Source: Candidatus Poribacteria bacterium
GTDB taxonomy: Bacteria; Poribacteria; WGA-4E; WGA-3G
Reading direction: 5' to 3'
Assembly (NCBI GenBank): GCA_965215265.1
Contig: OZ244048.1
Coordinates: 4,096,001 to 4,160,000 of the forward strand
Length of the DNA: 64,000 nt
In this document: positions 3,533 to 50,451 of the stretch, in pieces
Numbering within the stretch: position 1 is the stretch's first letter
Layout: each line of letters starts with the position of its first letter
The notes under the pieces: model-generated
The model's input: only the letters and a program-made list of their open reading frames with translations
Told to the model about the DNA's origin: nothing
Database searches by the model: none
Made by a program: the position numbers and the translations under genes

Positions 3533-4723
3533 TTACCGTCGTATCGCTTTGCCTGTCGCTTTATCAAAGAAATGGATGCGTTCCGGTACAAACTTGACGT
3601 AGATGAACGCGCCAATTTGCGTCTGGAAGTTCGGGGCGGCCCTGGATTTGAGAAGCGTATGCGTGCCGGCCGCATCTGTTCCAAGCGTTAACTCAACTAT
3701 GGTTTCTGCCCCTAGCGGCTCAACACTATAGACTTCCGCTCGAAATGCATTGGGTACCGCCTGATGACTGACCTGCACATCTTCAGGGTGTACCCCGAAA
3801 ATGGCTTCTCGGTTTTCAGGAGTTTTGCGAAACGTTTGTGCGACATCAGCATTCTCAATTGTTACCGTAGCGGCAGGGCGATCGAGGTTCGCTGTTACGC
3901 GGGGGTTGCTGCTGGGCTGGCTTCCATCTGGAATGTGAAGTGCGGCGGCTCTGAGCGTCAATTCGAGCTGCCCCTTGGTATTGGAAATTTCACAAGGGAT
4001 ACAGTTCATACTTGGACTTCCGATGAAACTTGCAACAAATAGGTTTGCCGGGTGGTTATAAATATCAGCAGGTGTCCCCAATTGCTGGATTTTTCCGGCT
4101 TCAAGTACTGCGATGCGGTCTGCCATAGACATCGCTTCAATCTGATCGTGCGTGACGTAGAGGGTTGTTGTCCCGAGTTCACGTTGCCGCCATCGGATTT
4201 CTGCACGCATTTCCATACGGAGTTTCGCATCCAGGTTAGAGATCGGTTCATCCATCAGGAAAACTTGCGGGCGGCGAACCATTGCCCGCCCTAAGCCGAC
4301 ACGTTGGGTTTCACCGCCACTCAACTGACTCGGCATGCGTGTCAGCAGATGCTCGATGTGAAGCATCTGTGCGATGTCCTTAACCCGCCGGTCAATTTCC
4401 TCTATCGGCAGTTTACGCGGATGCAAAGGAAACGCCATATTCTCGTAAACGGTGAGATGCGGATACAGAATATGCGATTGAAACACAAATGCCACATCGC
4501 GCACTGCAGGCGTTCGGTCGGTGACACATACATCGTTTAGGTAGATGCTGCCCTCTTCCGGCCTCGCTAAACCGGCGAGACACCGGAGGGTTGTCGTTTT
4601 CCCCGCGCCAGTCTGCCCAAGCAGCACAAAAAATTCCTGATCTTTCACAGCAAATGTGAGATTCTCTAAAGCAATCTGCTCGCCGAAACGTTTTGTCACG
4701 TTTTCAAATGTTACTGTTGACAT
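3533..4723 (-). CDS. Sugar ABC transporter ATP-binding protein (MalK/UgpC family)
   Basis: Walker A GQTGAGKTT, LSGGETQR signature, LMDEPISNLD, YVTHDQIEAM, C-terminal OB/TOBE domain. Confidence 0.93.
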   Translation of the reverse strand: MSTVTFENVTKRFGEQIALENLTFAVKDQEFFVLLGQTGAGKTTTLRCLAGLARPEEGSIYLNDVCVTDRTPAVRDVAFVFQSHILYPHLTVYENMAFPLHPRKLPIEEIDRRVKDIAQMLHIEHLLTRMPSQLSGGETQRVGLGRAMVRRPQVFLMDEPISNLDAKLRMEMRAEIRWRQRELGTTTLYVTHDQIEAMSMADRIAVLEAGKIQQLGTPADIYNHPANLFVASFIGSPSMNCIPCEISNTKGQLELTLRAAALHIPDGSQPSSNPRVTANLDRPAATVTIENADVAQTFRKTPENREAIFGVHPEDVQVSHQAVPNAFRAEVYSVEPLGAETIVELTLGTDAAGTHTLLKSRAAPNFQTQIGAFIYVKFVPERIHFFDKATGKAIRR

Positions 4724-4841
4724 AAATTCAGGCCTTTAAGATGCAGTGTAGCTGCAACCCAGAAAATATTTTGAGTGCATAAAAAAAGCGTGCACCATTC
4801 ATTTTGATACTCAGCATGTCTCTATTATCACACAAATTGCA

Positions 4842-5235
4842 ATTGAATATCCACAAAAAAGTGTCTCAGGGTGTAATTTACAATTCGCTTTCATCGTTAT
4901 CTGATTAAGTTCAATTGGCTCTTTTTACCCCCGGACTCAAGTCGGTGGGTGAAAATTCACCCGTTCAGATGGTATAGCAAGCCGTGTCTCGCTGAGAAGA
5001 GGGCAGCAGACGTGGATTCAATAAAAAAAGTTGGCATATTCCGGATTTTGTGTTATAATATAATAATAAGCGTTTTGTGACTCAATCTAGAAAACTTGCG
5101 AGCCCCGTAGAGTTGATTCTGTAATGGAAACGGATAATGAGACGTTATTTACCCCGTCCTTTAGTCTATATCGGTAACTTGTATAAATGTGCGATAAAAC
5201 TGGAAAAAAGTTGGATTTTTTTTCGCGTTTTATGA
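4842..5235 (+). repeat. ~0.3-0.4 kb promoter-containing direct repeat, copy 1 (others at 7032-7362 and 8935-9265)
   Basis: Starts ATTGAATATCCACAAAAAAGTGTCTC in all three copies. Contains TTGGCA/TTGACA-N17-TATAAT. Confidence 0.9.
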
Positions 5236-5303
5236 GATACTAAAGTTTGTAAATTTTTAGAATGAAGGATGAGTAGAGTAAAGCGAGTCAGGATGGAGGA
5301 GTT

Positions 5304-6446
5304 ATGCGCAGAGCAGGCGATGAAAAACCGCGCGGTGTCCGGGCGGCTTATGACGCACACTTCAAACAGAATCTCAACGCGCAGCTGGGGGAGAGACTCG
5401 GGCTGCCGATACAGGCAGAACTCGCCGTCAGCTACCTGCCTCTCACGATAGACATCTGCGTGATTTTGCGAGACACCGCTGACCGGGCAAACCTCCTCGC
5501 CGAAGAGCCGATTTTCCGCTATTTCCGAACGCATAATCTCATAGAGTTCAAAAGTCAAGCCGACGCGTTGACAGAGAGTGATTATTACCGCATCCAGGCG
5601 CGTGCGTGTCTTTATCTGGCTGATAACAGGCTTTCAAAGCAGGCACTCACCTTGACGATTGTCTCCGCCCGCTACCCTCGCGCACTGCTCTCGCGGCCTT
5701 ATTACAAGGGACAATGGAAACGCGTCAAGCCGGGACACTACCAGATAACGGAGACGTTTCCAGTGCATCTGTTAGTGTGCAACGAGTTGGCGCTGGTGCG
5801 AGAGAATTACTTGTTGCTGCCTTTTACGGCATCAGCGGAACAATTCCGTGCGTTTGTGAGGCAGCTAGTTGCAGAAGAAAATGAGCGCTATTTTAGATAT
5901 GCGTCGCAGGTCCACCCTCGAACATCATTGGAGATATTACAAATGGGAAAGAAACAGAACTTTTATGAAACCGAAATGCAAGCATTGGCAGACACATTCG
6001 GTGCCGAGATTCTGGCGAGAATTCCGCCTGCCGAACGGATGAAAGGACTCACTCCTGAAGAGCGTGCCGACATGTTAGCACGGCTGCCCGCTGAAGCCCG
6101 TGCGGACATGCTGGCCCGCTTGAGTCCTCAGGACCGGGCGGACATGTTAGCACGGCTGCCCGCTGAAGCCCGTGCGGACATGCTGGCCCGCTTGAGTCCT
6201 CAGGACCGGGCGGACATGTTAGCACGGCTGCCCGCTGAAGCCCGTGCGGACATGCTGGCCCGCTTGAGTCCTCAGGACCGGGCGGATATGTTAGCACGCC
6301 TGAGTGCCGATGAGCGCGTCAAAGGACTCAGCCCCGATGAACGGTTAGCCGGACTTCGCCCGGCGGAGATTCAGAATTTATCTCCAGAGGTGCGGGCAGA
6401 GCTTGTCCGGCAGCTGGTGGCAGCTGACAACGACAACGACACCTAA
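5304..6446 (+). CDS. Rpn-like PD-(D/E)XK nuclease with 12-aa C-terminal repeats, copy A1
   Basis: GGAGG RBS. YDAHFKQ...TIDICVI...HNLIEFKS (D...ExK). Tail of RADMLARLPAEA/RADMLARLSPQD repeats. Internal GGAG-N9-ATG at 5943. Confidence 0.8.
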   Translation: MRRAGDEKPRGVRAAYDAHFKQNLNAQLGERLGLPIQAELAVSYLPLTIDICVILRDTADRANLLAEEPIFRYFRTHNLIEFKSQADALTESDYYRIQARACLYLADNRLSKQALTLTIVSARYPRALLSRPYYKGQWKRVKPGHYQITETFPVHLLVCNELALVRENYLLLPFTASAEQFRAFVRQLVAEENERYFRYASQVHPRTSLEILQMGKKQNFYETEMQALADTFGAEILARIPPAERMKGLTPEERADMLARLPAEARADMLARLSPQDRADMLARLPAEARADMLARLSPQDRADMLARLPAEARADMLARLSPQDRADMLARLSADERVKGLSPDERLAGLRPAEIQNLSPEVRAELVRQLVAADNDNDT

Positions 6447-6513
6447 CGGAGAGCCGCCGTCCCTTGATACCCGCTCGCAGGTCCACCCTCGGACATCATT
6501 GGAGATATTACAA

Positions 6514-6891
6514 ATGGGAAAGAAACAGAACTTTTATGAAACCGAAATGCAAGCATTAGCAGACACATTCGGTGCCGAGATTCTGGCGAGAATTCCGCCT
6601 GCCGAACGGATGAAAGGACTCACTCCCGAAGAGCGTGCCGACATGTTAGCACGGCTGCCCGCTGAAGCCCGTGCGGACATGCTGTCCCGCTTGAGTCCTC
6701 AGGACCGGGCGGATATGTTAGCACGCCTGAGTGCCGATGAGCGCGTAGATATGTTAGCACGCCTGAGTGCCGATGAACGCGTCAAAGGACTTAGCCCCGA
6801 TGAACGGTTAGCCGGACTTCATTTATCTCCGGAGGTGCGGGCAGAGCTTGTCCGGCAGCTGGTGGCAGCTGACAACGACAACGACACCTAA
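6514..6891 (+). CDS. Stand-alone C-terminal-domain protein (125 aa) of the Rpn-like nuclease, orphan cassette 1
   Basis: Begins MGKKQNFYETEM with the same GGAG RBS as the internal start at 5943. No nuclease domain. Confidence 0.75.
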   Translation: MGKKQNFYETEMQALADTFGAEILARIPPAERMKGLTPEERADMLARLPAEARADMLSRLSPQDRADMLARLSADERVDMLARLSADERVKGLSPDERLAGLHLSPEVRAELVRQLVAADNDNDT

Positions 6892-6958
6892 CGGAGAGCC
6901 GCCGTCCCTTGATACCCGCTCGCAGGTCCACCTTCGAACATCATTGGAGATATTACAA

Positions 6959-7031
6959 ATGGGAAAGAAATAGAACTTTTATGAAACCGAAATGCAAGCA
7001 TTAGCAGACACATTCGGTGCCGAGATTCTGG
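6959..7031 (+). pseudogene. Truncated orphan C-terminal cassette 2
   Basis: MGKK then CAG>TAG at 6971. Cut at CGAGATTCTGG, where the promoter repeat resumes. Confidence 0.75.
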
Positions 7032-7405
7032 ATTGAATATCCACAAAAAAGTGTCTCAGGGTGTAATTTACAATTCGCTTTCATCGTTATCTGATTAAGT
7101 TCAATTGGCTCTTTTTACCCCCGGACTCAAGTCGGTGGGTGAAAATTCACCCGTTCAGATGGCATAGCAAGCCGTGTCTCGCTGAGAAGAAGGCAGCAGA
7201 CGTGGATTCAATAAAAAAAGTTGGCATATTCCGGATTTTGTGTTATAATATAATAATAATAAGCGTTTTGTGATTCAATCTAGAAAACTTGCGAGCCCCG
7301 TAGAGTTGATTCTGTAATGGAAACGGATAATGAGACGTTATTTACCCCGTCCTTTAGTCTATAAATGAAGATGAGTAGAGTAAAGCGAGTCAGGATGGAG
7401 GAGTT

Positions 7406-8278
7406 ATGCCTAGAGCAGGCGATGAAAAACCGCGCGGTGTCCGGGCGGCTTATGACGCACACTTCAAACAGAATCTCAACGCGCAGCTGGGGGAGAGACT
7501 CGGGCTGCCGATACAGGCAGAACTCGCCGTCAGCTACCTGCCTCTCACGATAGACATCTGCGTGATTTTGCGAGACACCGCTGACCGGGCAAACCTCCTC
7601 GCCGAAGAGCCGATTTTCCGCTATTTCCGAACGCATAATCTCATAGAGTTCAAAAGTCAAGCCGACGCGTTGACAGAGAGCGACTATTACCGCATCCAGG
7701 CGCGTGCTTGTCTTTATCTGGCTGATAATAGGCTTTCAAAGCAGGCACTCACCTTGACGATTGTCTCCGCCCGCTACCCTCGCGCACTGCTCTCGCGGCC
7801 CTATTACAAGGGGCAATGGAAACGCGTCAAGCCGGGACACTACCAGATAACGGAGACGTTTCCAGTGCATCTGTTAGTGTGCAACGAGTTGGCGCTGGTG
7901 CGAGAGAATTACTTGTTGCTGCCTTTTACGGCATCAGCGGAACAATTCCGTGCGTTTGTGAGGCAGCTAGTTGCAGAAGAAAATGAGCGCTATTTTAGAT
8001 ATGCGTCGCAGGTCCACCCTCAAACATCATTGGAGATATTACAAATGGGAAAGAAACAGAACTTTTATGAAACCGAAATGCAAGCATTAGCAGACACATT
8101 CGGTGCCGAGATTCTGGCGAGAATTCCGCCTGCCGAACGGATGAAAGGACTCAGCCCCGAGGAGCGCGTCAAGGCATTTCAGAGTTTGTCGCCGGCGGAG
8201 ATTCAGAATTTATCTGCGGAGGTGCGGGCAGAGCTTGTCCGGCAGCTGGTGGCAGCTGACAACGACAACGACACCTAA
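7406..8278 (+). CDS. Rpn-like PD-(D/E)XK nuclease, copy A2 (short tail)
   Basis: N-domain nearly identical to 5304-6446. Internal ATG at 8045. Repeat tract collapsed. Confidence 0.8.
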   Translation: MPRAGDEKPRGVRAAYDAHFKQNLNAQLGERLGLPIQAELAVSYLPLTIDICVILRDTADRANLLAEEPIFRYFRTHNLIEFKSQADALTESDYYRIQARACLYLADNRLSKQALTLTIVSARYPRALLSRPYYKGQWKRVKPGHYQITETFPVHLLVCNELALVRENYLLLPFTASAEQFRAFVRQLVAEENERYFRYASQVHPQTSLEILQMGKKQNFYETEMQALADTFGAEILARIPPAERMKGLSPEERVKAFQSLSPAEIQNLSAEVRAELVRQLVAADNDNDT

Positions 8279-8345
8279 CGGAGAGCCGCCGTCCCTTGAT
8301 ACCCGCTCGCAGGTCCACCCTCAAACATCAATGGAGATATTACAA

Positions 8346-8858
8346 ATGGGAAAAAGACAGAACTTTTATGAAACCGAAATGCAAGCGTTAGCAAACACAT
8401 TCGGTGCCGAGATTCTGGCGAGAATTCCGCCTGCCGAACGGATGAAAGGACTCACTCCCGAAGAGCGTGCCGACATGTTAGCACGGCTGCCCGCTGAAGC
8501 CCATGCGGACATGCTGGCCCGCTTGAGCCCACAAAACCGGGCGGACATGTTAGCACGGCTGCCCGCTGAAGCCCGTGCGGACATGCTGGCCCGCTTGAGC
8601 CCACAAAACCGGGCGGACATGTTAGCACGGCTGCCCGCTGAAGCCCGTGCGGACATGCTGGCCCGCTTGAGTCCTCAGGATCGGGCGGATATGTTAGCAC
8701 GCCTGAGTGCCGATGAACGCGTCAAAGGACTCAGCCCCGATGAGCGCGTCAAAGCATTTCAAGGCTTGTCGCCGGCGGAGATTCAGAATTTATCTCCAGA
8801 GGTGCGGGCAGAACTCGTCCGCCAACTGGTGGCAGCTGACAACCACACCGACACCTAA
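8346..8858 (+). CDS. Stand-alone C-terminal-domain protein (170 aa), orphan cassette 3
   Basis: MGKRQNFYETEMQALANTF..., with its own GGAG RBS and variant repeats (SPQN). Confidence 0.75.
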   Translation: MGKRQNFYETEMQALANTFGAEILARIPPAERMKGLTPEERADMLARLPAEAHADMLARLSPQNRADMLARLPAEARADMLARLSPQNRADMLARLPAEARADMLARLSPQDRADMLARLSADERVKGLSPDERVKAFQGLSPAEIQNLSPEVRAELVRQLVAADNHTDT

Positions 8859-9381
8859 CGGAGAGCCGCCGTCCCTTGATACCTGCTCGCGCGTCTACTC
8901 GCGGACAGGACATCAATCGGCAGCGAGATTCTGGATTGAATATCCACAAAAAAGTGTCTCAACGTGTAACTTACAATTCGCTTTCATCGTTATCTTATTA
9001 AGTCCAATTGGCCCTTTTTACCACCGGACTCAAGTCGATGGGTGAAAAGTCACTAGTCAGAAAAAAAAGTTGACATATTCCGAATTTTGTGTTATAATAT
9101 AGCAGGGTTTTGTGAGTCAATCTCGAAAACTCTCGAGACTCGTAAAGTTGATTCTGTAATGGAAACGGATAATGAGACGTTATTTACAACATAGTCTATA
9201 TCGGTAACTTGTATAAATGTGCGATGAAACGCAAAAAAAAGTTGGTTTTTTTCGCGTTTTATGATATAATATTATGATATAATGTAGTTAATAGTGTTTT
9301 TTGGTTCTATAACTTAGTCAGAAGACTATAAAGTTTATTGCATAACGTGTGCAATAAAGACTAAATAAGGAGTTAGATAAA

Positions 9382-11310
9382 ATGAAAGGAAAATTTGCTT
9401 TTCCATTATTAAGTATTTTAGGGTTGTTATTCATTGCTGTGCTCTGCATGCCGTCCCACGTACAGGCAGCAGCAGCAGATCAGGATTCAGTGACAATAGC
9501 AGCAGATGGATTTGAGATACTTAGTACCCCCACGAGCACCGCGGGGCCTTCTGTTTATGCTGACCTTCTCCAACAGGCTTTTGAAGCAGGTTGGGAGGCA
9601 GAGAAGGTAGGAGCAACAGGTAGTTTCGCAGATGCTGAGACCAGAATGGCGGCACAGGCCACATTGGCAAGTCTTGTAAATGCGGACGGTTATACTACTG
9701 CTGACGAGGTAGCGTGGGATGAAACTAACACTAGAAAGGCTCGACACTACGCGGTAGGTGATACGATTAAAATTCGCGTGAAGTTTACCCTTGGAGTGGT
9801 AATCCATCAGGATGTGAAATTACGGATAGATCTACACGAGCCCGTATACATGGACATAGACACGACGGTGCATACACAAACGGTCGAACGTCCTACTGGT
9901 GCTGGAGTGGGAAATGGTAGATTTGCTGGAACGGTATACAGACAGGGCCTCAATAACAGTAACCAAGTTTCTCCTGCAGTTGCAGATCAGAAGACTGATG
10001 ACGTTTATGTCACCTTTGCATACACGGTACAAGAGGGTGACTTCACTTCAGAAGGTATAAGAATGATTAAGTGGGTTGACCCCTTTTATCGTGACCTGGA
10101 TGCTGCCGGTAGTCCTGGTCACGGTACTCACGAAGCCAACGAGCGGTTAACTCAATTTACCAAACTTACAAACACGCCAACAGAGAAGGCGCGGGCCATT
10201 ATTCCGCTAAAGAATTCTTGGGGTAACTTTCGGCAACTGGTACATAACAGTATACTAGTAGTGGGCGGGACCGGCTCCGGTGATGCCTGGGAAGGTGCTT
10301 TCGTGATACCTGCCGATGTCACCACTACCCGTGATGACTATGCTTCTACTGAGGCATTTCCATTTGCCTACCTTGGTCAATTGCTGGCACATCGTCGCCT
10401 TCGTCAAGGCGGGACGAATGTTTATCTTCATTCAGTAGATACGTTTAGGGCCGACACGATCGTCGCCCAAATCGTTGAGGGCATCGGTGCAAGATTCGCA
10501 CCGCTCAATGAAGGGGATCCCACAATTATTGATGAAATAGTGGAGCAAACCGAGGCGTTTGATATAGAAATCAAGTTCGCTAATCATTATGAGGACATCT
10601 ATGCGGAACAACCGGCCAGCAATACCTTTGGTGCGGCTGAGATTCTTCTCAGCGGTGACGACGTGGAGCGTGCTGATTGGACGATCACCGATGCGGCATT
10701 TTATGGCTTGGATGCTGTTGACCCCGGTAGTTATGACTCTACTAATTCAGCGATTACCCGGGCTCATGATGCTTTTGCCGGTGAGATAAAAGCCAGTGCG
10801 TCCTATGCAGTCTATCGTGCGACGATTACCCCGCCTGATGATTTTGATGGGGATGTAAGGATATCGATTGCTGAAGGCGCTATTACAGATCTTGCCGGTA
10901 ACACGAGCAAGGCCTCGAGTACGCTGACGGTGCCTGTAAATACAATCACCGATGTGACCATTCCTGATGAGACGCTCCTTGCGAAAATCAAGGAGAAACT
11001 CGGCATCACCGCGGGGACGGTTGTCCCCCAGGCAGATATGCTCCGCTTAACAAGCCTAGATTTAAGTGGCCTAGACGTTAGCGATCTGACCGGACTTGAA
11101 TTCGCAACCAACTTGGAAGAGTTGGATCTCAGTGATACGCAAGTAAAGGATATTTCAGCGCTGTCAACCCTCACCAGCTTGCTAGAGCTGTCTCTCTCGG
11201 GTACGCCAGTGTCGGATATCTCGGATCTGTCAGGCCTCACCAACTTGAAAGTGCTGGATCTTAGTGATACGGAAGTGTCGGATATTTCAGCGCTGTCATC
11301 AACAAATTAA
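9382..11310 (+). CDS. Secreted surface protein with Ig-like region and internalin-type leucine-rich repeats
   Basis: AAGGAG RBS, signal peptide, FAYTVQEGD and ITDLAGN Ig-like motifs, LRR cap (IPDETL...), repeats LxxLDLSxTxVSDISAL. Confidence 0.8.
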   Translation: MKGKFAFPLLSILGLLFIAVLCMPSHVQAAAADQDSVTIAADGFEILSTPTSTAGPSVYADLLQQAFEAGWEAEKVGATGSFADAETRMAAQATLASLVNADGYTTADEVAWDETNTRKARHYAVGDTIKIRVKFTLGVVIHQDVKLRIDLHEPVYMDIDTTVHTQTVERPTGAGVGNGRFAGTVYRQGLNNSNQVSPAVADQKTDDVYVTFAYTVQEGDFTSEGIRMIKWVDPFYRDLDAAGSPGHGTHEANERLTQFTKLTNTPTEKARAIIPLKNSWGNFRQLVHNSILVVGGTGSGDAWEGAFVIPADVTTTRDDYASTEAFPFAYLGQLLAHRRLRQGGTNVYLHSVDTFRADTIVAQIVEGIGARFAPLNEGDPTIIDEIVEQTEAFDIEIKFANHYEDIYAEQPASNTFGAAEILLSGDDVERADWTITDAAFYGLDAVDPGSYDSTNSAITRAHDAFAGEIKASASYAVYRATITPPDDFDGDVRISIAEGAITDLAGNTSKASSTLTVPVNTITDVTIPDETLLAKIKEKLGITAGTVVPQADMLRLTSLDLSGLDVSDLTGLEFATNLEELDLSDTQVKDISALSTLTSLLELSLSGTPVSDISDLSGLTNLKVLDLSDTEVSDISALSSTN

Positions 11311-14233: not shown

Positions 14234-15463
14234 ATGAGGCAAACGACAGTGCCGGAGACATCCAAACAAACACCAAGCAAACGGAAACTCTGGGACCCTT
14301 TCTTCAAAGAGTTCCTCGCCCTACCCTTCTCTGGGCTGGGTGCCTCTATCCAGACAGAGATAGAAGTCAACCGGTTGCCGCAGCGTATAGATGCACTCGC
14401 TCTCCTCGAAAGCGCCGCAGCCCGCGCGAGAGTGCGTGCCAATCCGCTGCTCTCTTACTTACGCACGCATAATCTGTTTGAATTCAAAGGACAAAACGAC
14501 CCGTTGAATGAATCGGCGTATCACCGGATTTGTATGCGTGCGCGTGGTTATCTGGCAGATAAGCAGGTGCCTGCAACCGAGTTAACCCTGACGATAGTAT
14601 CGTCTCGGAAGCCGCGGGCGCTGCTCTCCCGCCCACCTTTTGGGGAGCCGTGGGAGCCGTTGGCGGCGGGGCATTATCGGTTGATGGATGGCGTGCCGGT
14701 GCATCTGTTGGTTTGCAATGAAGTGGCACTGGTTGAGCCGAATTATTGGTTGCTGCTGTTTGCGTCGGCGCAGAAACAGTTTCGTGCGTTCCTGCGGCGG
14801 GTGATAACAGAAGAGAATACGTTATATTTTGACTCCGCGTTGTATTTGCAGCCGGAAGTCACGGAGGAGGTTTGTGAAATGGAAGGCCGTCAAGATTTCT
14901 TTCAGAGTCGTCTTCGCGAAGTTGCGACGACTTTAGGTCCGAAGCTGCTGTCGGCGCTGACATCGGAGGAGCGTGCGGACATGCTCGCCCGCTTGAGTCC
15001 TCAAGACCGGGCGGATCTGCTCGCACGGCTGCCCGCTGAAGCCCGCGCGGACATGTTAGCAAGGTTATCTGCGGCAGACCGGGCCGATATGTTGGCGAGT
15101 TTACCCGCCGCAGAACGTGCGGACATGTTAGCAAGGTTATCTGCGGCAGACCGGGCCGATATGTTGGCGAGTTTACCCGCCGCAGAACGTGCGGACATGT
15201 TAGCAAGGTTATCTGCGGCAGACCGGGCCGATATGTTAGCGAGTCTACCCGCCGCAGAACGGGCCGATATGTTGGCACGCCTGAGTCCCGATGAACGTGT
15301 CAAAGGACTCAGCCCCGAGGAGCGCGTCGAAGGACTCAGTCCCGAGGAGCGCGTCAAGGCATTTCAGAGTTTGTCGCCGGCGGAGATTCAGAATTTATCT
15401 GCGGAGGTGCGCGCGGAACTCGTGCGGCAGCTGGAGGCAGCTGACAACCACACCGACACTTAA
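14234..15463 (+). CDS. Rpn-like PD-(D/E)XK nuclease paralog B with 12/24-aa C-terminal repeats
   Basis: WDPFFKE...RIDALAL...HNLFEFKG. Internal GGAGGAGG-N8-ATG at 14879. Tail shared with copies A1/A2. Confidence 0.8.
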   Translation: MRQTTVPETSKQTPSKRKLWDPFFKEFLALPFSGLGASIQTEIEVNRLPQRIDALALLESAAARARVRANPLLSYLRTHNLFEFKGQNDPLNESAYHRICMRARGYLADKQVPATELTLTIVSSRKPRALLSRPPFGEPWEPLAAGHYRLMDGVPVHLLVCNEVALVEPNYWLLLFASAQKQFRAFLRRVITEENTLYFDSALYLQPEVTEEVCEMEGRQDFFQSRLREVATTLGPKLLSALTSEERADMLARLSPQDRADLLARLPAEARADMLARLSAADRADMLASLPAAERADMLARLSAADRADMLASLPAAERADMLARLSAADRADMLASLPAAERADMLARLSPDERVKGLSPEERVEGLSPEERVKAFQSLSPAEIQNLSAEVRAELVRQLEAADNHTDT

Positions 15464-19553: not shown

Positions 19554-21330
19554 TTATTCTGTTACCACGGTTTCCTCACCCAGCATATCAATAATCTTGA
19601 CGGCAACGCGGGCATCACGGCGCGGCAGCACTACCTTGTATTGGCCCTTGATAAAATCGGTTCTCTGCTCCGGCACATCACTCTCAACGATTCTGAAATG
19701 CGTGCCGTTGTAGTCCGTATCTATCAGCACGCAATCAATCTGCGCACGGAAATCATCTATTTGTTCGTCAAAGAGGGTGCGGGCTATCTCCAAACGCCCT
19801 AAGAGGCTCGGACTGATATAATCTACGAGGGTGATGGTGACGTGTTGCCTGTCTCTTTTGAAGGCAACTTCTGCTTCAGCAGGGGCGAAGGTTGTGACAC
19901 CGTCGCGTTGGATGTCCCGCACGATGAGTTGATTAATCGGGTGATGCTTGTTTTCTGCGTCAAGTTCGGTTTGTATTCCCAGCTCGCTGCCGTTGCATAG
20001 CACCGTTACCGAGCGCGTCTCATCAGGGCGGTGCTGCAGTTCGTCTTTGATAAGTTGAATATCTAATCGGGTGAGCGGTTTCGTCAGCTCAACGATTTTG
20101 ACGAGGGTTCCGTCTACGGTGCCGTCAAAGAAGCGGTCTTTCTTGTCCGTTTCTATGCCATACTTTTCGATGACAAGCCGATGGAGTTCTTGTTCTTTGC
20201 CAAAGTCATAGTTATTGATGCGATAGTGAGCGATGCCGCGGTGTTCGGCAATAGTTGTCTGGATGCGTTTCATTGTCGTCTGTATCGCGCCTCTGTTCAG
20301 ATCTGCGGAGATCCAGCGTCTGCGGAGTTTTTCAGCGATGACTGCGGTGGTGCCGCTTCCCACGAAGCAATCCAGCACGATGGAGTCTGCGTTGCTTGAT
20401 GCTTTGATGATGCGGGCTAGAAGAGCCTCCGGTTTTTGGGTTGGATAGTTAACAAGTTCTTGTTTTGGTATGTGGCTACCATTACCTATATCGGACCACC
20501 AATCTTCTATGATTTTACCGCCCTTTTCTACAAGTTCGTTCATCCGTTCTTGTCTTTGTTGAATAGTAACATTTTGGCCGACAGATAAAGAGGTTTTCCC
20601 ACCTATACTGTTTCCAAGTTTGTAAGGTACCCTTATACTATCGGCGTTGAATATAGGTGTATTCGATTTTGAATAAAAAAGAAGAATGTCATGCTTTCGA
20701 GGAAACCAATTTTTGGTATTATTAGGCCCTGTATATCCCCAAACTATCTCATTCCGAAACTGCTGTATGCCAAAGACCTCATCCATAATCAGTTTCAAAT
20801 AATGACTCATCGTTGGGTCACAGTGCAGGTAGATAGAGCCGGCATCCGAAAGCAGTTCGCGCATTAAGATAAGCCGCTCAAACATGAACTGGAGATAATT
20901 GTCATTCGCCCAGATGTCGGTGTATTGTGTCTGTTCAATAATAGAGTGACCTTCGCCTGTTAAAGAAGCAGGTTTACCCCCCCCTACTCCCACCTGGGTT
21001 CCCAGCACCTTCACCCATCGAGGTTCCCGGAATGCCGCGGAGTTTTACCTTTCGAACGTAGTCTGCACCACTAGCAAAGGGCGGGTCAATGTAGATGAGA
21101 TCTACCTTGCCACGGAAACCGTTGACGAGTAAGGTGGAGAGAATTTCCTTGTTATCCCCGTGAAAGAGAAGGTTCGGGCCCTCCAAAAATCCATCATATA
21201 GCGGCTCTTTCTCTGCGTTTTCAACGTTACAAGTTTCCACCAATTGGGCGGGATAGTTGCTCACCGTCTCGAGGGGGCGTTTGCCCACCCAATGAAGCAT
21301 CGCTCTCCCTTTAACCGGCGTGATTTTCAT
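19554..21330 (-). pseudogene. mod: Type III-like (Mod) site-specific DNA methyltransferase, frameshifted at a G8 tract
   Basis: N-part (21330-20974) has GDNKEIL and IYIDPPF. C-part has YLQFMFERL, YPTQKPEALL, DCFVGSGTT. The frames join if C8 at 20977-20984 becomes C7. Confidence 0.85.
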
Positions 21331-47878: not shown

Positions 47879-48979
47879 ATGCAAAAGGGGGACATCCACG
47901 ACTTTTTGTCCGAGATGTCTGTTGCGAACTTTTCCGATCGGAGTATACGCCGCTTATTAGAAAACAGGGAAAACGTCCGGGGCTTGTTAGAAATCGTTGC
48001 GGCAGAACTCGCAGCGTTGATTGACTTTGAGCATCTGGTTCCAATGAATAGGAGCCTGCTGCCCGCCACTCTCCGAGAACAAGAGGCAGACATTGTATAT
48101 CGGGTGCCCTTCAAAAGTGATAGGGATGAGGGTGCGGCAGAGCTGCTCCTCTATCTGCTGATTGAACACCAATCGACGGTAGATGAGACGATGGGATTTC
48201 GTGTGCTTTTCTACATGATGCTGATTTGGGACGCGGAGCGGCGGCGGTGGGCGGCAGAGAAGATGCCGAGAAGAGAGCGTGTATTGCCGCCGATTCTGCC
48301 CGTGGTATTTTACACGGGGGAGCGGCGGTGGGAGAAGCCACTGACACTTGAGGCGCTGATGAATTTGCCCGCGGCGCTCTCTCGATTCGTTCCGAGATTT
48401 GACATCCTATTTCTGAATCTGAAAGGCACAGACAAGGCGACGCTGACAGAGGCGGCGCATCCGTTCGGTTGGCTGATGAGAGTGCTGCAACAAGGAGATT
48501 CAGACAAAGCGTCTATAAGGCGTGCCTTAGTGGAGACTTTGACGCAGTTGGCGGCGCTTGATGCGGCGGATTCGGGGCAGCGGCGGGAAGCGATAATGTA
48601 TCTGGTATCGCTGATTGTGCATCGGCGTCCAAAGGAAGAGCAAGAAGAGTTGATAGAACTGGTAGACCGGCATACGCGTGATATGGAGGTAGCACCGATG
48701 GCAGAGACAATGGCCGAATTCCTCTTAGAACGAGGCATAGCACAAGGCATTGAACAAGGCATTGAACGAGGCATTGAACGAGGGAGAGAACAAGGGGCGT
48801 GCCAGACGGCTATCAAAAATATAACCGCCGTCCTCAACGCACGATTCCCTGACCGTGATATAGAGCCTGCTACGCAGAAACTCGAAACCCTTTCTGATCT
48901 CGAACACCTCGAGCAATTGCTGCTGATAGCCGTCAAAACCGACAGTTTTCAAGCATTCCTACAGGCGTTAGAACTATAG
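47879..48979 (+). CDS. Rpn family recombination-promoting nuclease / putative transposase (YhgA-like), copy 1
   Basis: EADIVYRV, LLIEHQST, PPILPVVFYTGE..W, GIEQ/GIER tail. Internal GGAGG-N8-ATG at 48698. Confidence 0.92.
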   Translation: MQKGDIHDFLSEMSVANFSDRSIRRLLENRENVRGLLEIVAAELAALIDFEHLVPMNRSLLPATLREQEADIVYRVPFKSDRDEGAAELLLYLLIEHQSTVDETMGFRVLFYMMLIWDAERRRWAAEKMPRRERVLPPILPVVFYTGERRWEKPLTLEALMNLPAALSRFVPRFDILFLNLKGTDKATLTEAAHPFGWLMRVLQQGDSDKASIRRALVETLTQLAALDAADSGQRREAIMYLVSLIVHRRPKEEQEELIELVDRHTRDMEVAPMAETMAEFLLERGIAQGIEQGIERGIERGREQGACQTAIKNITAVLNARFPDRDIEPATQKLETLSDLEHLEQLLLIAVKTDSFQAFLQALEL

Positions 48980-49314: not shown

Positions 49315-50451
49315 ATGCAAAAGGGGGACATCCACGACTTTTTGTCCGAGATGTCTGTTGCGAACTTTTCCGATCGGAGTATACGCCGCTTATTAGAAAA
49401 CAAGGAAAACGTCCGGGGCTTGTTAGAAATCGTTGCGGCAGAACTCGCAGCGTTGATTGACTTTGAGCATCTGGTTCCAATGAATAGGAGCCTACTGCCC
49501 GCCACTCTCCGAGAACAAGAGGCAGACATTGTATATCGGGTGCCCTTCAAAAGTGATAGGGATGAGGGTGGTGAGGAGCTGCTCCTCTATCTGCTGATTG
49601 AACACCAATCGACGGTAGATGAGACGATGGGATTTCGTGTGCTTTTCTACATGATGCTGATTTGGGACGCGGAGCGGCGGCGGTGGGCGGCAGAGACGGT
49701 GCCGAGAAGAGAGCGTGTATTGCCGCCGATTCTGCCTGTGGTGTTTTACACGGGGGAGCGGCGGTGGGAAAAGCCTCTGACACTTGAGGCGATGATGAAT
49801 TTGCCCGCGGCGCTCTCTCGATTCGTTCCGAGATTTGACATCCTGTTTCTGAATCTGAAAGGCACAGACAAGGCGACGCTGACAGAGGCGGCTCATCCGT
49901 TCGGTTGGCTGATGAGAGTGCTGCAACAAAAAGATTCGGACAAAGCGTCTATAAGCCGGGCGTTACGAGAGACTTTGACGCAGTTGGCGACACTTGATGC
50001 GGCGGATTCAGGGCAGCGTAGGGAAGCGATAATGTATCTGGTATCGCTGATTGTGCATCGGCGTTCAAAGGAAGAGCAAGAAGAGTTGATAGAGCTGGTA
50101 GACCGGCATACGAGTGACATGGAGGTAGCACCGATGGCAGAGACAATGGCCGAATTCCTCTTCGAACGAGGCATAGCACAAGGCATTGAACAAGGCATTG
50201 AACGAGGCATAGCACAAGGCATTGAACAAGGCATTGAACGAGGCATTGAACGAGGGAGAGAACAAGGGGCGTGCCAGACGGCTATCAAAAATATAACCGC
50301 CGTCCTCAACGCACGATTCCCTGACCGTGATATAGAGCCTGCTACGCAGAAACTCGAAACCCTTTCTGATCTCGAACACCTCGAGCAATTGCTGCTGATA
50401 GCCGTCAAAACCGACAGTTTTCAAGCATTCCTACAGGCGTTAGAACTATAG
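49315..50451 (+). CDS. Rpn family nuclease, copy 2
   Basis: Tandem duplicate (1436-bp period) with 12 extra aa of GIxQ repeats. Internal ATG at 50134. Confidence 0.92.
   Translation: MQKGDIHDFLSEMSVANFSDRSIRRLLENKENVRGLLEIVAAELAALIDFEHLVPMNRSLLPATLREQEADIVYRVPFKSDRDEGGEELLLYLLIEHQSTVDETMGFRVLFYMMLIWDAERRRWAAETVPRRERVLPPILPVVFYTGERRWEKPLTLEAMMNLPAALSRFVPRFDILFLNLKGTDKATLTEAAHPFGWLMRVLQQKDSDKASISRALRETLTQLATLDAADSGQRREAIMYLVSLIVHRRSKEEQEELIELVDRHTSDMEVAPMAETMAEFLFERGIAQGIEQGIERGIAQGIEQGIERGIERGREQGACQTAIKNITAVLNARFPDRDIEPATQKLETLSDLEHLEQLLLIAVKTDSFQAFLQALEL

Follow-up and report, generated by a model that had tools for sequence, protein, structure and literature searches.

Why should a nuclease gene be followed by several copies of its own C-terminal part, each beginning just ahead of a ribosome-binding site (RBS) and start codon that already lie within the gene? 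This question is raised by an array in a 64,000-nt stretch (the window) of the genome of a Candidatus Poribacteria sponge symbiont (contig OZ244048.1), in which two full-length genes with a predicted PD-(D/E)XK nuclease fold are trailed by tail-only cassettes. Coordinates below are those of the window unless prefixed C1: (the genome contig); L denotes a full-length protein and S a tail-only protein. The reading favoured here, at a probability of roughly 55 %, is that the locus consists of two tandem gene-within-gene toxin–antitoxin or defence genes that are Rpn-like in their logic and belong to a separate, unnamed PD-(D/E)XK family. L would be a nuclease domain fused to a helical tail of 12-aa repeats, a Shine–Dalgarno (SD) sequence and ATG at the domain boundary would also yield the tail alone as S, and S would bind L and hold it inactive. 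The cassettes would be extra S genes, generated either directly by tandem duplication or by duplicating the whole gene in tandem and later removing its nuclease half; they would be transcribed together with the gene ahead of them, with translation beginning at the duplicated RBS and ATG. Through unequal recombination inside the repeats they would expand, shrink and exchange tails, the outcome being added S dosage and S variants.

Positions 4842–8934 form a tandem duplication of two units of 2.1–2.2 kb (4842–7031 and 7032–8934), all on the forward strand, which are 99 % identical across flank, leader and N-domain and which each comprise a strong promoter, a full-length gene and then downstream cassettes. 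The first unit opens with a 3′ flank copy, a promoter (TTGGCA-17-TATAAT with TG; 5031–5059) and a 5′ leader (4842–5303) and continues with gene A (5304–6446; 380 aa), in which the N-domain of predicted PD-(D/E)XK fold (aa 1–213) precedes the repeat tail. At the domain boundary GGAG (5930–5933) is followed after 9 nt by an in-frame ATG (5943), delimiting a nested candidate gene for S_A (5930–6446; 167 aa). Cassette 1 (6447–6891; 445 nt) consists of a 3′ spacer (6447–6474), a boundary copy (6475–6513, with GGAG at 6501–6504) and the open reading frame (ORF) of orphan 1 (6514–6891; 125 aa). Cassette 2 (6892–7031) is a pseudo-cassette with GGAG at 6946–6949, ATG at 6959 and TAG at 6971–6973; it is cut after 7031, directly behind GAGATTCTGG (7022–7031), a microhomology with the native 3′ flank. 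The second unit repeats the flank, promoter (7221–7249) and leader (7032–7405) and carries gene B (7406–8278; 290 aa), with an N-domain 99 % identical to that of gene A and a short tail; its GGAG (8032–8035), 9 nt and in-frame ATG (8045) delimit the nested S_B (8032–8278; 77 aa). Cassette 3 (8279–8858; 580 nt) contains a spacer, a boundary copy (GGAG at 8333–8336) and the orphan 3 ORF (8346–8858; 170 aa). A terminal remnant (8859–8934), made up of spacer and a decayed, internally deleted cassette head, again ends in GAGATTCTGG (8925–8934), and a remnant of this type also terminates a related array at C1:1.762 Mb.

The cassettes are copies of the genes: segment 5904–6203 is 92 % identical to 6475–6774 and 95 % to 8307–8606, and segment 6376–6593 is 97 % identical to 6821–7038 and 96 % to 8208–8425, far above chance. 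A first-pass annotation, made from the sequence without database searches, had located the genes, the GGAG-N9-ATG signals and the cassettes, and all of these coordinates held when the sequence and ORFs were reread. Its C-domain lengths (167, 125, 77 and 170 aa) and 12-aa repeats were likewise confirmed, the tails having repeat periods of 36 and 72 nt (12 and 24 aa), as was its statement that each cassette in the window copies RBS, ATG and C-domain and not the catalytic nuclease half. It had put the start of the cassettes about 40 bp upstream of the RBS; the copied stretch in fact starts at about 6475 (6466 allowing mismatches), which is 26–35 nt before GGAG and 39–48 nt before ATG. The cassettes have no promoter of their own and no terminator-like site was found between either gene and its cassettes, so that the cassettes would be co-transcribed with the upstream gene.

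Such an array might be an assembly artefact of collapsed or expanded repeats, a way in which the first-pass annotation had foreseen that its proposal could fail. Repeats abound in the region, and contigs assembled from short reads in other runs end inside it. The comparison with reads was made on assembled contigs only; no listed piece covers the whole stretch, and among the contigs listed for runs X6 and X7 none crosses the junction with 31 nt to each side of it. The joint going back 72 that X1 and X6 contain may come from other paralogs and was not used. The exact junction pattern had no match in genome or metagenome contig collections, from which near relatives may be missing. Against an artefact, the genome assembly is a single contig of 4.83 Mb, and the spacer/boundary junction near 6471 is bridged by contigs from two other studies (X1 record 4 and X5 record 10). 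The same junction, in a sequence variant of its own, recurs in a segmental copy at C1:1.762 Mb, where a gene of 335 aa is followed by two cassettes that do not differ from each other (355 nt, encoding 95 aa) and, further downstream, by a homologous gene; run X7 contains this variant as a loose end. Another assembly contains a 380-aa gene and small proteins of 125 and 146 aa, each on a contig of 407,608 nt. An artefact therefore has practically no probability, and the array is treated as real.

The N-domains of genes A and B had no Pfam or NCBIfam match at E≤1, and no Pfam nuclease model matched any of 63 family members. An AlphaFold2 model of gene B, computed from the 63-member alignment, scored a predicted local distance difference test (pLDDT) of 91.7 and a predicted template modelling score (pTM) of 0.83. 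Its secondary structure (H, helix; E, strand) runs H10–31, E36–41, E48–54, H58–67, E77–83, H91–107 and E115–121, an alpha-beta-beta-beta-alpha-beta core with D50 in strand 2 (48–54) and with E81 and K83 in strand 3 (77–83). The top rows of a wide VIA-align search, over residues 3–173, were NucS (Z 9.2, root-mean-square deviation 3.0, 100 aligned), McrC (Z 8.5) and AF1548 (Z 7.6), with Can2, Card1, BglII and FokI as further top matches of the restriction-endonuclease fold. Foldseek against the PDB gave nothing at E≤0.001, the best match being NucS at 0.027; the assignment is based on the VIA-align matches, and on this modelling evidence the N-domain is accepted as a predicted PD-(D/E)XK nuclease fold. 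The first-pass assignment to PD-(D/E)XK thus stands as a predicted fold and has no counterpart among Pfam or NCBIfam models. Genes A and B both have D50, E81 and K83, of which D50 and K83 show no variation in an alignment of 63 family members with identities down to about 20 %. Sequence searches of the PDB with gene B found no match, and the 63-member profile gave only weak repeat- or helix-driven matches, the best a designed protein (E 0.0013).

The family is large. A profile from five N-domains matched 2047 representative clusters at E≤0.001, 684 at 1e-10 and 62 at 1e-30; a word-based search returned only 11 relatives. Related loci occur in Candidatus Poribacteria and, more distantly, in Anaerolineae, Lachnospiraceae and Planctomycetes. 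Neighbouring clusters in the Atlas are unnamed, and one has HTH_Rpn_C in 10 % of its members. Full-length paralogs number 26 in the genome itself and fall into three to four subfamilies, which are about 45 % identical to one another; across the phylum, 32 of the 151 genomes searched contained the family. G025, a single contig of 4.0 Mb and the only sampled genome besides this one from its genus, had no family match, whereas a 9.1-Mb genome of another genus (G140) had 17 matches among the 16 of 63 candidates that were scored; the expansions are therefore lineage-specific.

The start signal inside the gene is conserved throughout. All 26 paralogs have GGAG or GGAGG followed after 9–10 nt by ATG at the domain boundary, and in the 63-member alignment the boundary methionine (M214) and E210 are at least 90 % conserved. 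Of 16 lineage representatives, which extend to Anaerolineae, Planctomycetes and one member of the Lachnospiraceae, all have an SD-like motif before the boundary methionine. Glutamate at codon −4 is encoded by GAG in 15 of 15 cases against a gene-wide GAG share of 0.45 (binomial P 7e-6), and lysine at codon −5 by AAG in nine of ten against 0.375 (P 1e-3), although these P values overstate the effect because the lineages are related. This synonymous bias points to selection on an RNA start signal and not on the protein alone, and suggests that S is translated from within the gene.

Tail-only cassettes have arisen at least five times on separate occasions. Five independent tandem events were distinguished and the SD sequence and ATG are kept in all five, a count that partly reflects ascertainment; three of the events start no more than about 21 nt before the ATG. 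The first-pass annotation had proposed surveying homologous loci for breakpoints relative to the RBS, and the outcome of the survey agrees with its expectation. Two events lie in the present genome (G000), one in subfamily I (the window and C1:1.762 Mb; breakpoint 39–48 nt before ATG) and one in subfamily III (C1:3425735; breakpoint 161 nt before ATG, so that 48 aa of the non-catalytic end of the N-domain are included). A third, at L026, is a decayed copy directly after the stop codon that starts about 16 nt before the ATG. The remaining two are in G140. At L061 there is one orphan with the junction TAG, 6 nt, GAGGAGG...ATG (about 15–21 nt before ATG), and at L062, in a distant clade with the N-terminus WHRLFG, there are two orphans with differing tails and the junction TAG, tcgtt, GGAGGG...ATG (about 12–15 nt before ATG), the SD sequence of the second orphan reading GTAGGG. 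These minimal G140 cassettes consist of SD sequence, ORF and stop codon only. In the present genome intact orphans are found behind four of the 26 genes.

The tail also persists where the nuclease half has gone. In many of the 32 positive genomes the sole match spans only the tail part of the family profile. Among 19 stand-alone loci that were fetched, the S ORF is intact at the conserved methionine in 16, intact with another start in one and decayed in two. One orthologous locus carries the full gene in two species and S only in six; argJ was seen downstream of the full gene in both species that have it, and downstream of S in five of the six that do not. In those six, five different deletions have removed the nuclease half and left S intact: an out-of-frame internal deletion, a replacement of the upstream part, two distinct in-frame fusions of the first six codons and, in two species, a fusion that brings the promoter and RBS of L to 3 nt ahead of the ATG of S. 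Ratios of dN/dS among solo genes were 0.11–0.43 in six species of one genus (dS 0.17–0.57) and 0.15–0.38 in three species of another, which indicates purifying selection on solo S genes. If L is harmful without S, one would expect the nuclease half to be lost time and again and S to be kept, as is seen here. In genus g9 the solo S gene (L045 of G040, with orthologues L047, L050 and L053) lies between MutS2-like and radical-SAM genes, and the MutS2-like ORF runs into the start region of S, as seen in L045, the one locus of the four whose neighbours were examined.

These patterns bear on whether the cassettes could simply be neutral by-products of slippage and unequal crossing-over in tails built of 36/72-nt repeats and shared by 26 paralogs, with partial duplicates that contain the stop codon piling up and later decaying, even if the internal start is real. 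Duplication is evident at all scales, from the repeats through in-frame tail duplications (39 aa ×2 and 50 aa ×3) and cassettes to the 2.1–2.2 kb unit and the copy at 1.76 Mb. With mutual identities of 92–97 % the cassettes are young, and the orphan pair at C1:1.762 Mb, whose members show no difference at all, is recent and uninformative on selection. Decay is seen in the cassette at 6959, in the remnants at 8859–8934 and after the gene at C1:3038267, in the L026 copy and in the GTAGGG of L062, and most of the 26 genes have no intact orphan. Because the survey detects only S-like copies, the observation that all breakpoints keep the start is in part a matter of ascertainment. Neutral origin accounts less well for the retention of SD and ATG in five of five events, three of them starting so close to the ATG, for the intact orphans in the second assembly, and for solo S genes that are apparently under purifying selection and have outlasted five different deletions. 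On balance a neutral origin of the cassettes is considered unlikely, though it carries appreciable weight.

Tails of gene A, orphan 1 and orphan 3 match MgtE_N (PF03448) with 52, 38 and 60 bits (cut-off 25.9). The NCBIfam mgtE model scores only 18–27 bits against a cut-off of 232.75, and no other domain was found; membership of the MgtE transporters was rejected, as there is no CBS pair or membrane domain and the likeness is confined to helical repeats. Across the family MgtE_N is matched by six of 63 members and DUF4351 by two. The only PADLOC match is repeat-driven, to a Type I specificity subunit (E 3e-5 and 2.5e-6). Tail lengths among the 26 paralogs range from 69 to 238 aa and are nearly all different. 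Modelled alone, orphan 1 reached pLDDT 68.9 and pTM 0.40, with one predicted helix of about 10 residues per 12-aa repeat. Two paralogs, C1:1735607(−) and 4553348(−), have in-frame tail duplications (39 aa ×2 and about 50 aa ×3), each of which takes in part of the tail head. A fragment of the subfamily II tail head without start codon occurs in four copies, at C1:437373(+), 1720278(−), 4202092(+) and 4366168(−), following a TTGACA...TATACT promoter-like site within some other repeat.

Signs that tails change length and partner were seen, in agreement with the exchange by recombination proposed in the first-pass annotation. The 146-aa protein of the other assembly equals orphan 3 less one 24-aa double repeat, and in P0001 an A-type N-domain is joined to an orphan-1-type tail. 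Orphan 3 has a tail similar to that of the gene at C1:1763796, whose own orphans bear the gene A tail type. A subfamily II gene (C1:3038267) is followed by a cassette head remnant of subfamily I type. Between subfamily II and gene B, nucleotide identity is 56–59 % in the N-domain and 48–53 % in the first 105 nt of the tail, but three subfamily II genes are 91–92 % identical to gene B over the last 105 nt. The head of S therefore appears to travel with the N-domain, while the repeats and tail end would form a shared recombining pool.

A pool of this kind could mean that the cassettes are donors for switching the tail of the expressed gene, as silent cassettes are in antigenic variation or as orphan toxin tips are. 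P0001 and the crosswise resemblance between orphan 3 and the C1:1763796 locus fit this idea, and fusion of an N-domain with a downstream small-protein region has been noted by Zhong et al. 2023 (PMC10400941). Silent copies need no RBS and ATG, yet these are conserved; the minimal G140 cassettes are complete small genes with SD sequence, ORF and stop codon; and no direct switching was seen between two samples of one strain. A mainly donor role is thus very improbable. Exchange of tails between subfamilies whose N-domains are only 56–59 % identical is also what would be expected if the tail protein served some independent purpose, such as regulation or scaffolding, with the nuclease domain as an optional add-on and no antitoxin activity. 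The solo S gene is the sole match to the family profile in six of the genomes used for dN/dS, where it nevertheless appears to be under purifying selection, and the tail matches MgtE_N and FliG-type helical repeats above the Pfam cut-off. Set against this, the first 36 or so aa of S co-vary with the N-domain subfamily, their identity of 48–53 % being like that of the N-domain. The full-length model (pTM 0.83) places the tail confidently against the N-domain, in contrast to the low scores of S modelled alone, and repeated loss of the nuclease half with S kept is the pattern of a toxin lost before its antitoxin. An independent function of the tail is accordingly rated as improbable, less so than the donor role.

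The toxin–antitoxin reading takes its model from Rpn, in which an internal start gives rise to RpnS, RpnS binds RpnL and blocks it, and pairing requires equal repeat number (PMC10400941 and PMC10400984). The new family has no detectable relationship to Rpn. PF04754 matched 0 of 63 members at E≤0.01, the Rpn models PF04754 and TIGR01784 are absent from the N-domain, and hhalign of the 63-member alignment against 40 canonical Rpn proteins gave a probability of 0.3 %. The same PF04754 model finds 24 canonical Rpn genes elsewhere in this genome, all above cut-off, so that the negative on the family is a working test. By sequence, then, the family is not Rpn; the two have in common a fold class, predicted here, and the architecture. 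Of the Rpn-like logic put forward in the first-pass annotation, the comparative signals (start conservation, breakpoints and solo S) survive and the kinship with YhgA/Rpn does not. PF14261 (DUF4351) matches nothing in this genome, and none of the Poribacteria solo genes examined contains it. Two of the canonical Rpn genes lie in the window, at 47879–48979 (+) and 49315–50451 (+), and 22 further ones elsewhere in the genome; their C-domains have 0–10 four-aa repeats (QGIE, RGIE, GREE). Canonical Rpn and the new family together amount to about 50 Rpn-like genes in 4.8 Mb. About a dozen more places match the Rpn C-domain at 37–88 % identity (13 tblastn rows, two pairs overlapping), and a search of the PDB by sequence with the Rpn profile found no match.

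A predicted complex of L_B with S_B gave a median ipSAE of 0.50 over three runs, the best of three controls scoring 0.00, with at least 88 % contact agreement and a partner pLDDT of at least 75. The pass mark is reached by 58 of 80 solved complexes and two of 110 mismatched pairs, and scores of 0.60 or below take in only seven of those 80 and both passing mismatches. This modelling gives weak support to binding of S_B to L_B: the complex model, of the kind suggested in the first-pass annotation, clearly separates from its controls and falls in the range that also holds the false passes. Toxicity of L, a role in defence and a benefit of the extra copies would follow by analogy with Rpn. Besides the decay, the recent identical orphans and the ascertainment described above, several points weigh against this toxin–antitoxin reading. 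As the family has no detectable kinship to canonical Rpn, the mechanism is borrowed by analogy. DUF4351, the RpnS domain, is found in just two of the 63 members, and the tails in the window match MgtE_N instead. Orphan and gene tails differ in length (125 vs 167 aa and 170 vs 77 aa), so that there would be no neutralisation in cis under the Rpn equal-length rule. Orphan 3 (cassette 3) is 94 % identical to the tail of gene A and not to that of gene B, which it follows. A large clade (N-terminus WHRLFG, motif HNLI[ST][FY]KS) has Ser or Thr for the Glu of E-x-K. Finally, the neighbourhood of the genes is not a classic defence island. Within the family, the Poribacteria and Anaerolineae clade keeps E81, and the WHRLFG clade still keeps the boundary methionine and forms orphan arrays.

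The first-pass annotation regarded the arrangement as undescribed. Its simplest form is already present in Zhong et al. 2023 (PMC10400941), who report separate downstream RpnS copies (ypaA, equal to rpnESs, after rpnE, and rpnCSs after rpnC), independent origins of RpnSs from the upstream gene, tandem rpn arrays, and loss of copies through fusion of the N-domain with the downstream small-protein region. The same source treats stand-alone small DUF4351 (PF14261) genes as separately encoded RpnS and cites the TAEL repeats of the Type I HsdS subunits of EcoR124I and EcoR124II for specificity by repeat number. No paper dealing with RpnS arrays of several copies, with this family or with poribacterial Rpn came up in a search of the literature, the supplements of PMC10400941, which possibly show arrays, lying outside that search. 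Within that search, the elements of the present locus that appear to be new are an Rpn-like logic in a sequence-unrelated family, tails of 12-aa repeats, arrays of at least two copies, minimal cassettes of SD sequence, ORF and stop codon, and repeated loss of the toxin half with the small gene kept.

The likeness to Rpn extends to an N-terminal PD-(D/E)XK nuclease joined to a small helical C-domain with its own in-frame start, which is predicted here. It also covers variable repeat number in the C-domain, many paralogs per genome, tandem gene duplication, a stand-alone small gene downstream that derives from the upstream gene, and fusion of tail and N-domain by deletion. Unlike Rpn, which has 4-aa insertions in one helix, this family has 12-aa helix repeats resembling MgtE_N. 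From sequence, up to two intact orphans plus remnants are found per gene, where Zhong et al. describe one copy, and the orphans differ in length from the gene that they follow. As with the stand-alone DUF4351 genes, the solo small genes match the C-domain of a nuclease family, though neither the tails in the window nor the Poribacteria solo genes examined contain DUF4351. As in HsdS, a variable count of short helical repeats would set molecular length; unlike HsdS, the PADLOC match covers the repeats only, and there are no target-recognition domains and no adjoining restriction–modification partner genes.

Contact-dependent inhibition (CDI), Rhs and other polymorphic toxin loci carry downstream orphan toxin-tip and immunity modules and have separate immunity genes. 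The cassettes resemble these modules in being tandem, partly decayed spares made and exchanged by recombination, with a protective partner that would outlive its toxin. They differ in that each spare duplicates a portion of the putative toxin gene, internal start included, and is not a toxin tip. A wider and tentative reading, which we would not expect to hold in full, builds on this analogy. The family would be a second, widespread class of nuclease toxins with a nested antitoxin, and S a free, recombining module, multiplied into arrays, swapped among paralogs and retained once the toxin has gone, that forms an immunity bank comparable to the orphan immunity arrays of polymorphic toxins, in a genome with 26 such nucleases and 24 Rpn genes. 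The number of 12-aa repeats might act as a length code, and the S repertoire might decide which of the cell's own or incoming nucleases are restrained.

Koonin's commentary asks whether internal-start antitoxins are unique to Rpn (PMC10400984), and a family with the same anatomy and neither Rpn kinship nor a Pfam model bears on that question. The abundance of such genes in sponge symbionts is a second question that it touches. The comparative evidence stands out for its clarity: start and SD sequence are conserved down to synonymous codons, precisely the nested gene has been duplicated repeatedly and independently, and the nuclease half has been lost repeatedly with the nested gene kept under purifying selection. 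If the toxin–antitoxin reading is confirmed, the gene-within-gene principle would be general and annotators would gain a rule for finding nested genes. The unequal orphans, together with the parallel 12-aa and 4-aa expansions, would then offer a natural system for how repeat number sets toxin–antitoxin pairing.

The window contains a third family paralog, a 409-aa gene of subfamily II (14234–15463, +) with its own GGAGGAG-N9-ATG and without an orphan. A third copy of flank, promoter (9070–9098) and leader (8935–9381, +) precedes a leucine-rich repeat protein gene (9382–11310). The near-consensus promoter with extended −10 and its leader of about 110 nt accordingly occur three times in the window (5023–5170, 7213–7363 and 9062–9205). 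Elsewhere in the genome promoter, leader and flank are found only at C1:1.76 Mb, there also before a homologous secreted-protein gene, and a mobile promoter element was rejected because the leader is present only at these two places. An Rfam scan of 4700–9500 at E≤1 returned no family, so that the repeated leader is not a known RNA. Some paralogs have conserved 3′ flanks in common. About 4 kb from the third paralog lies a DNA methylase gene (19554–21014, −; N6_N4_Mtase, E 1.7e-42).

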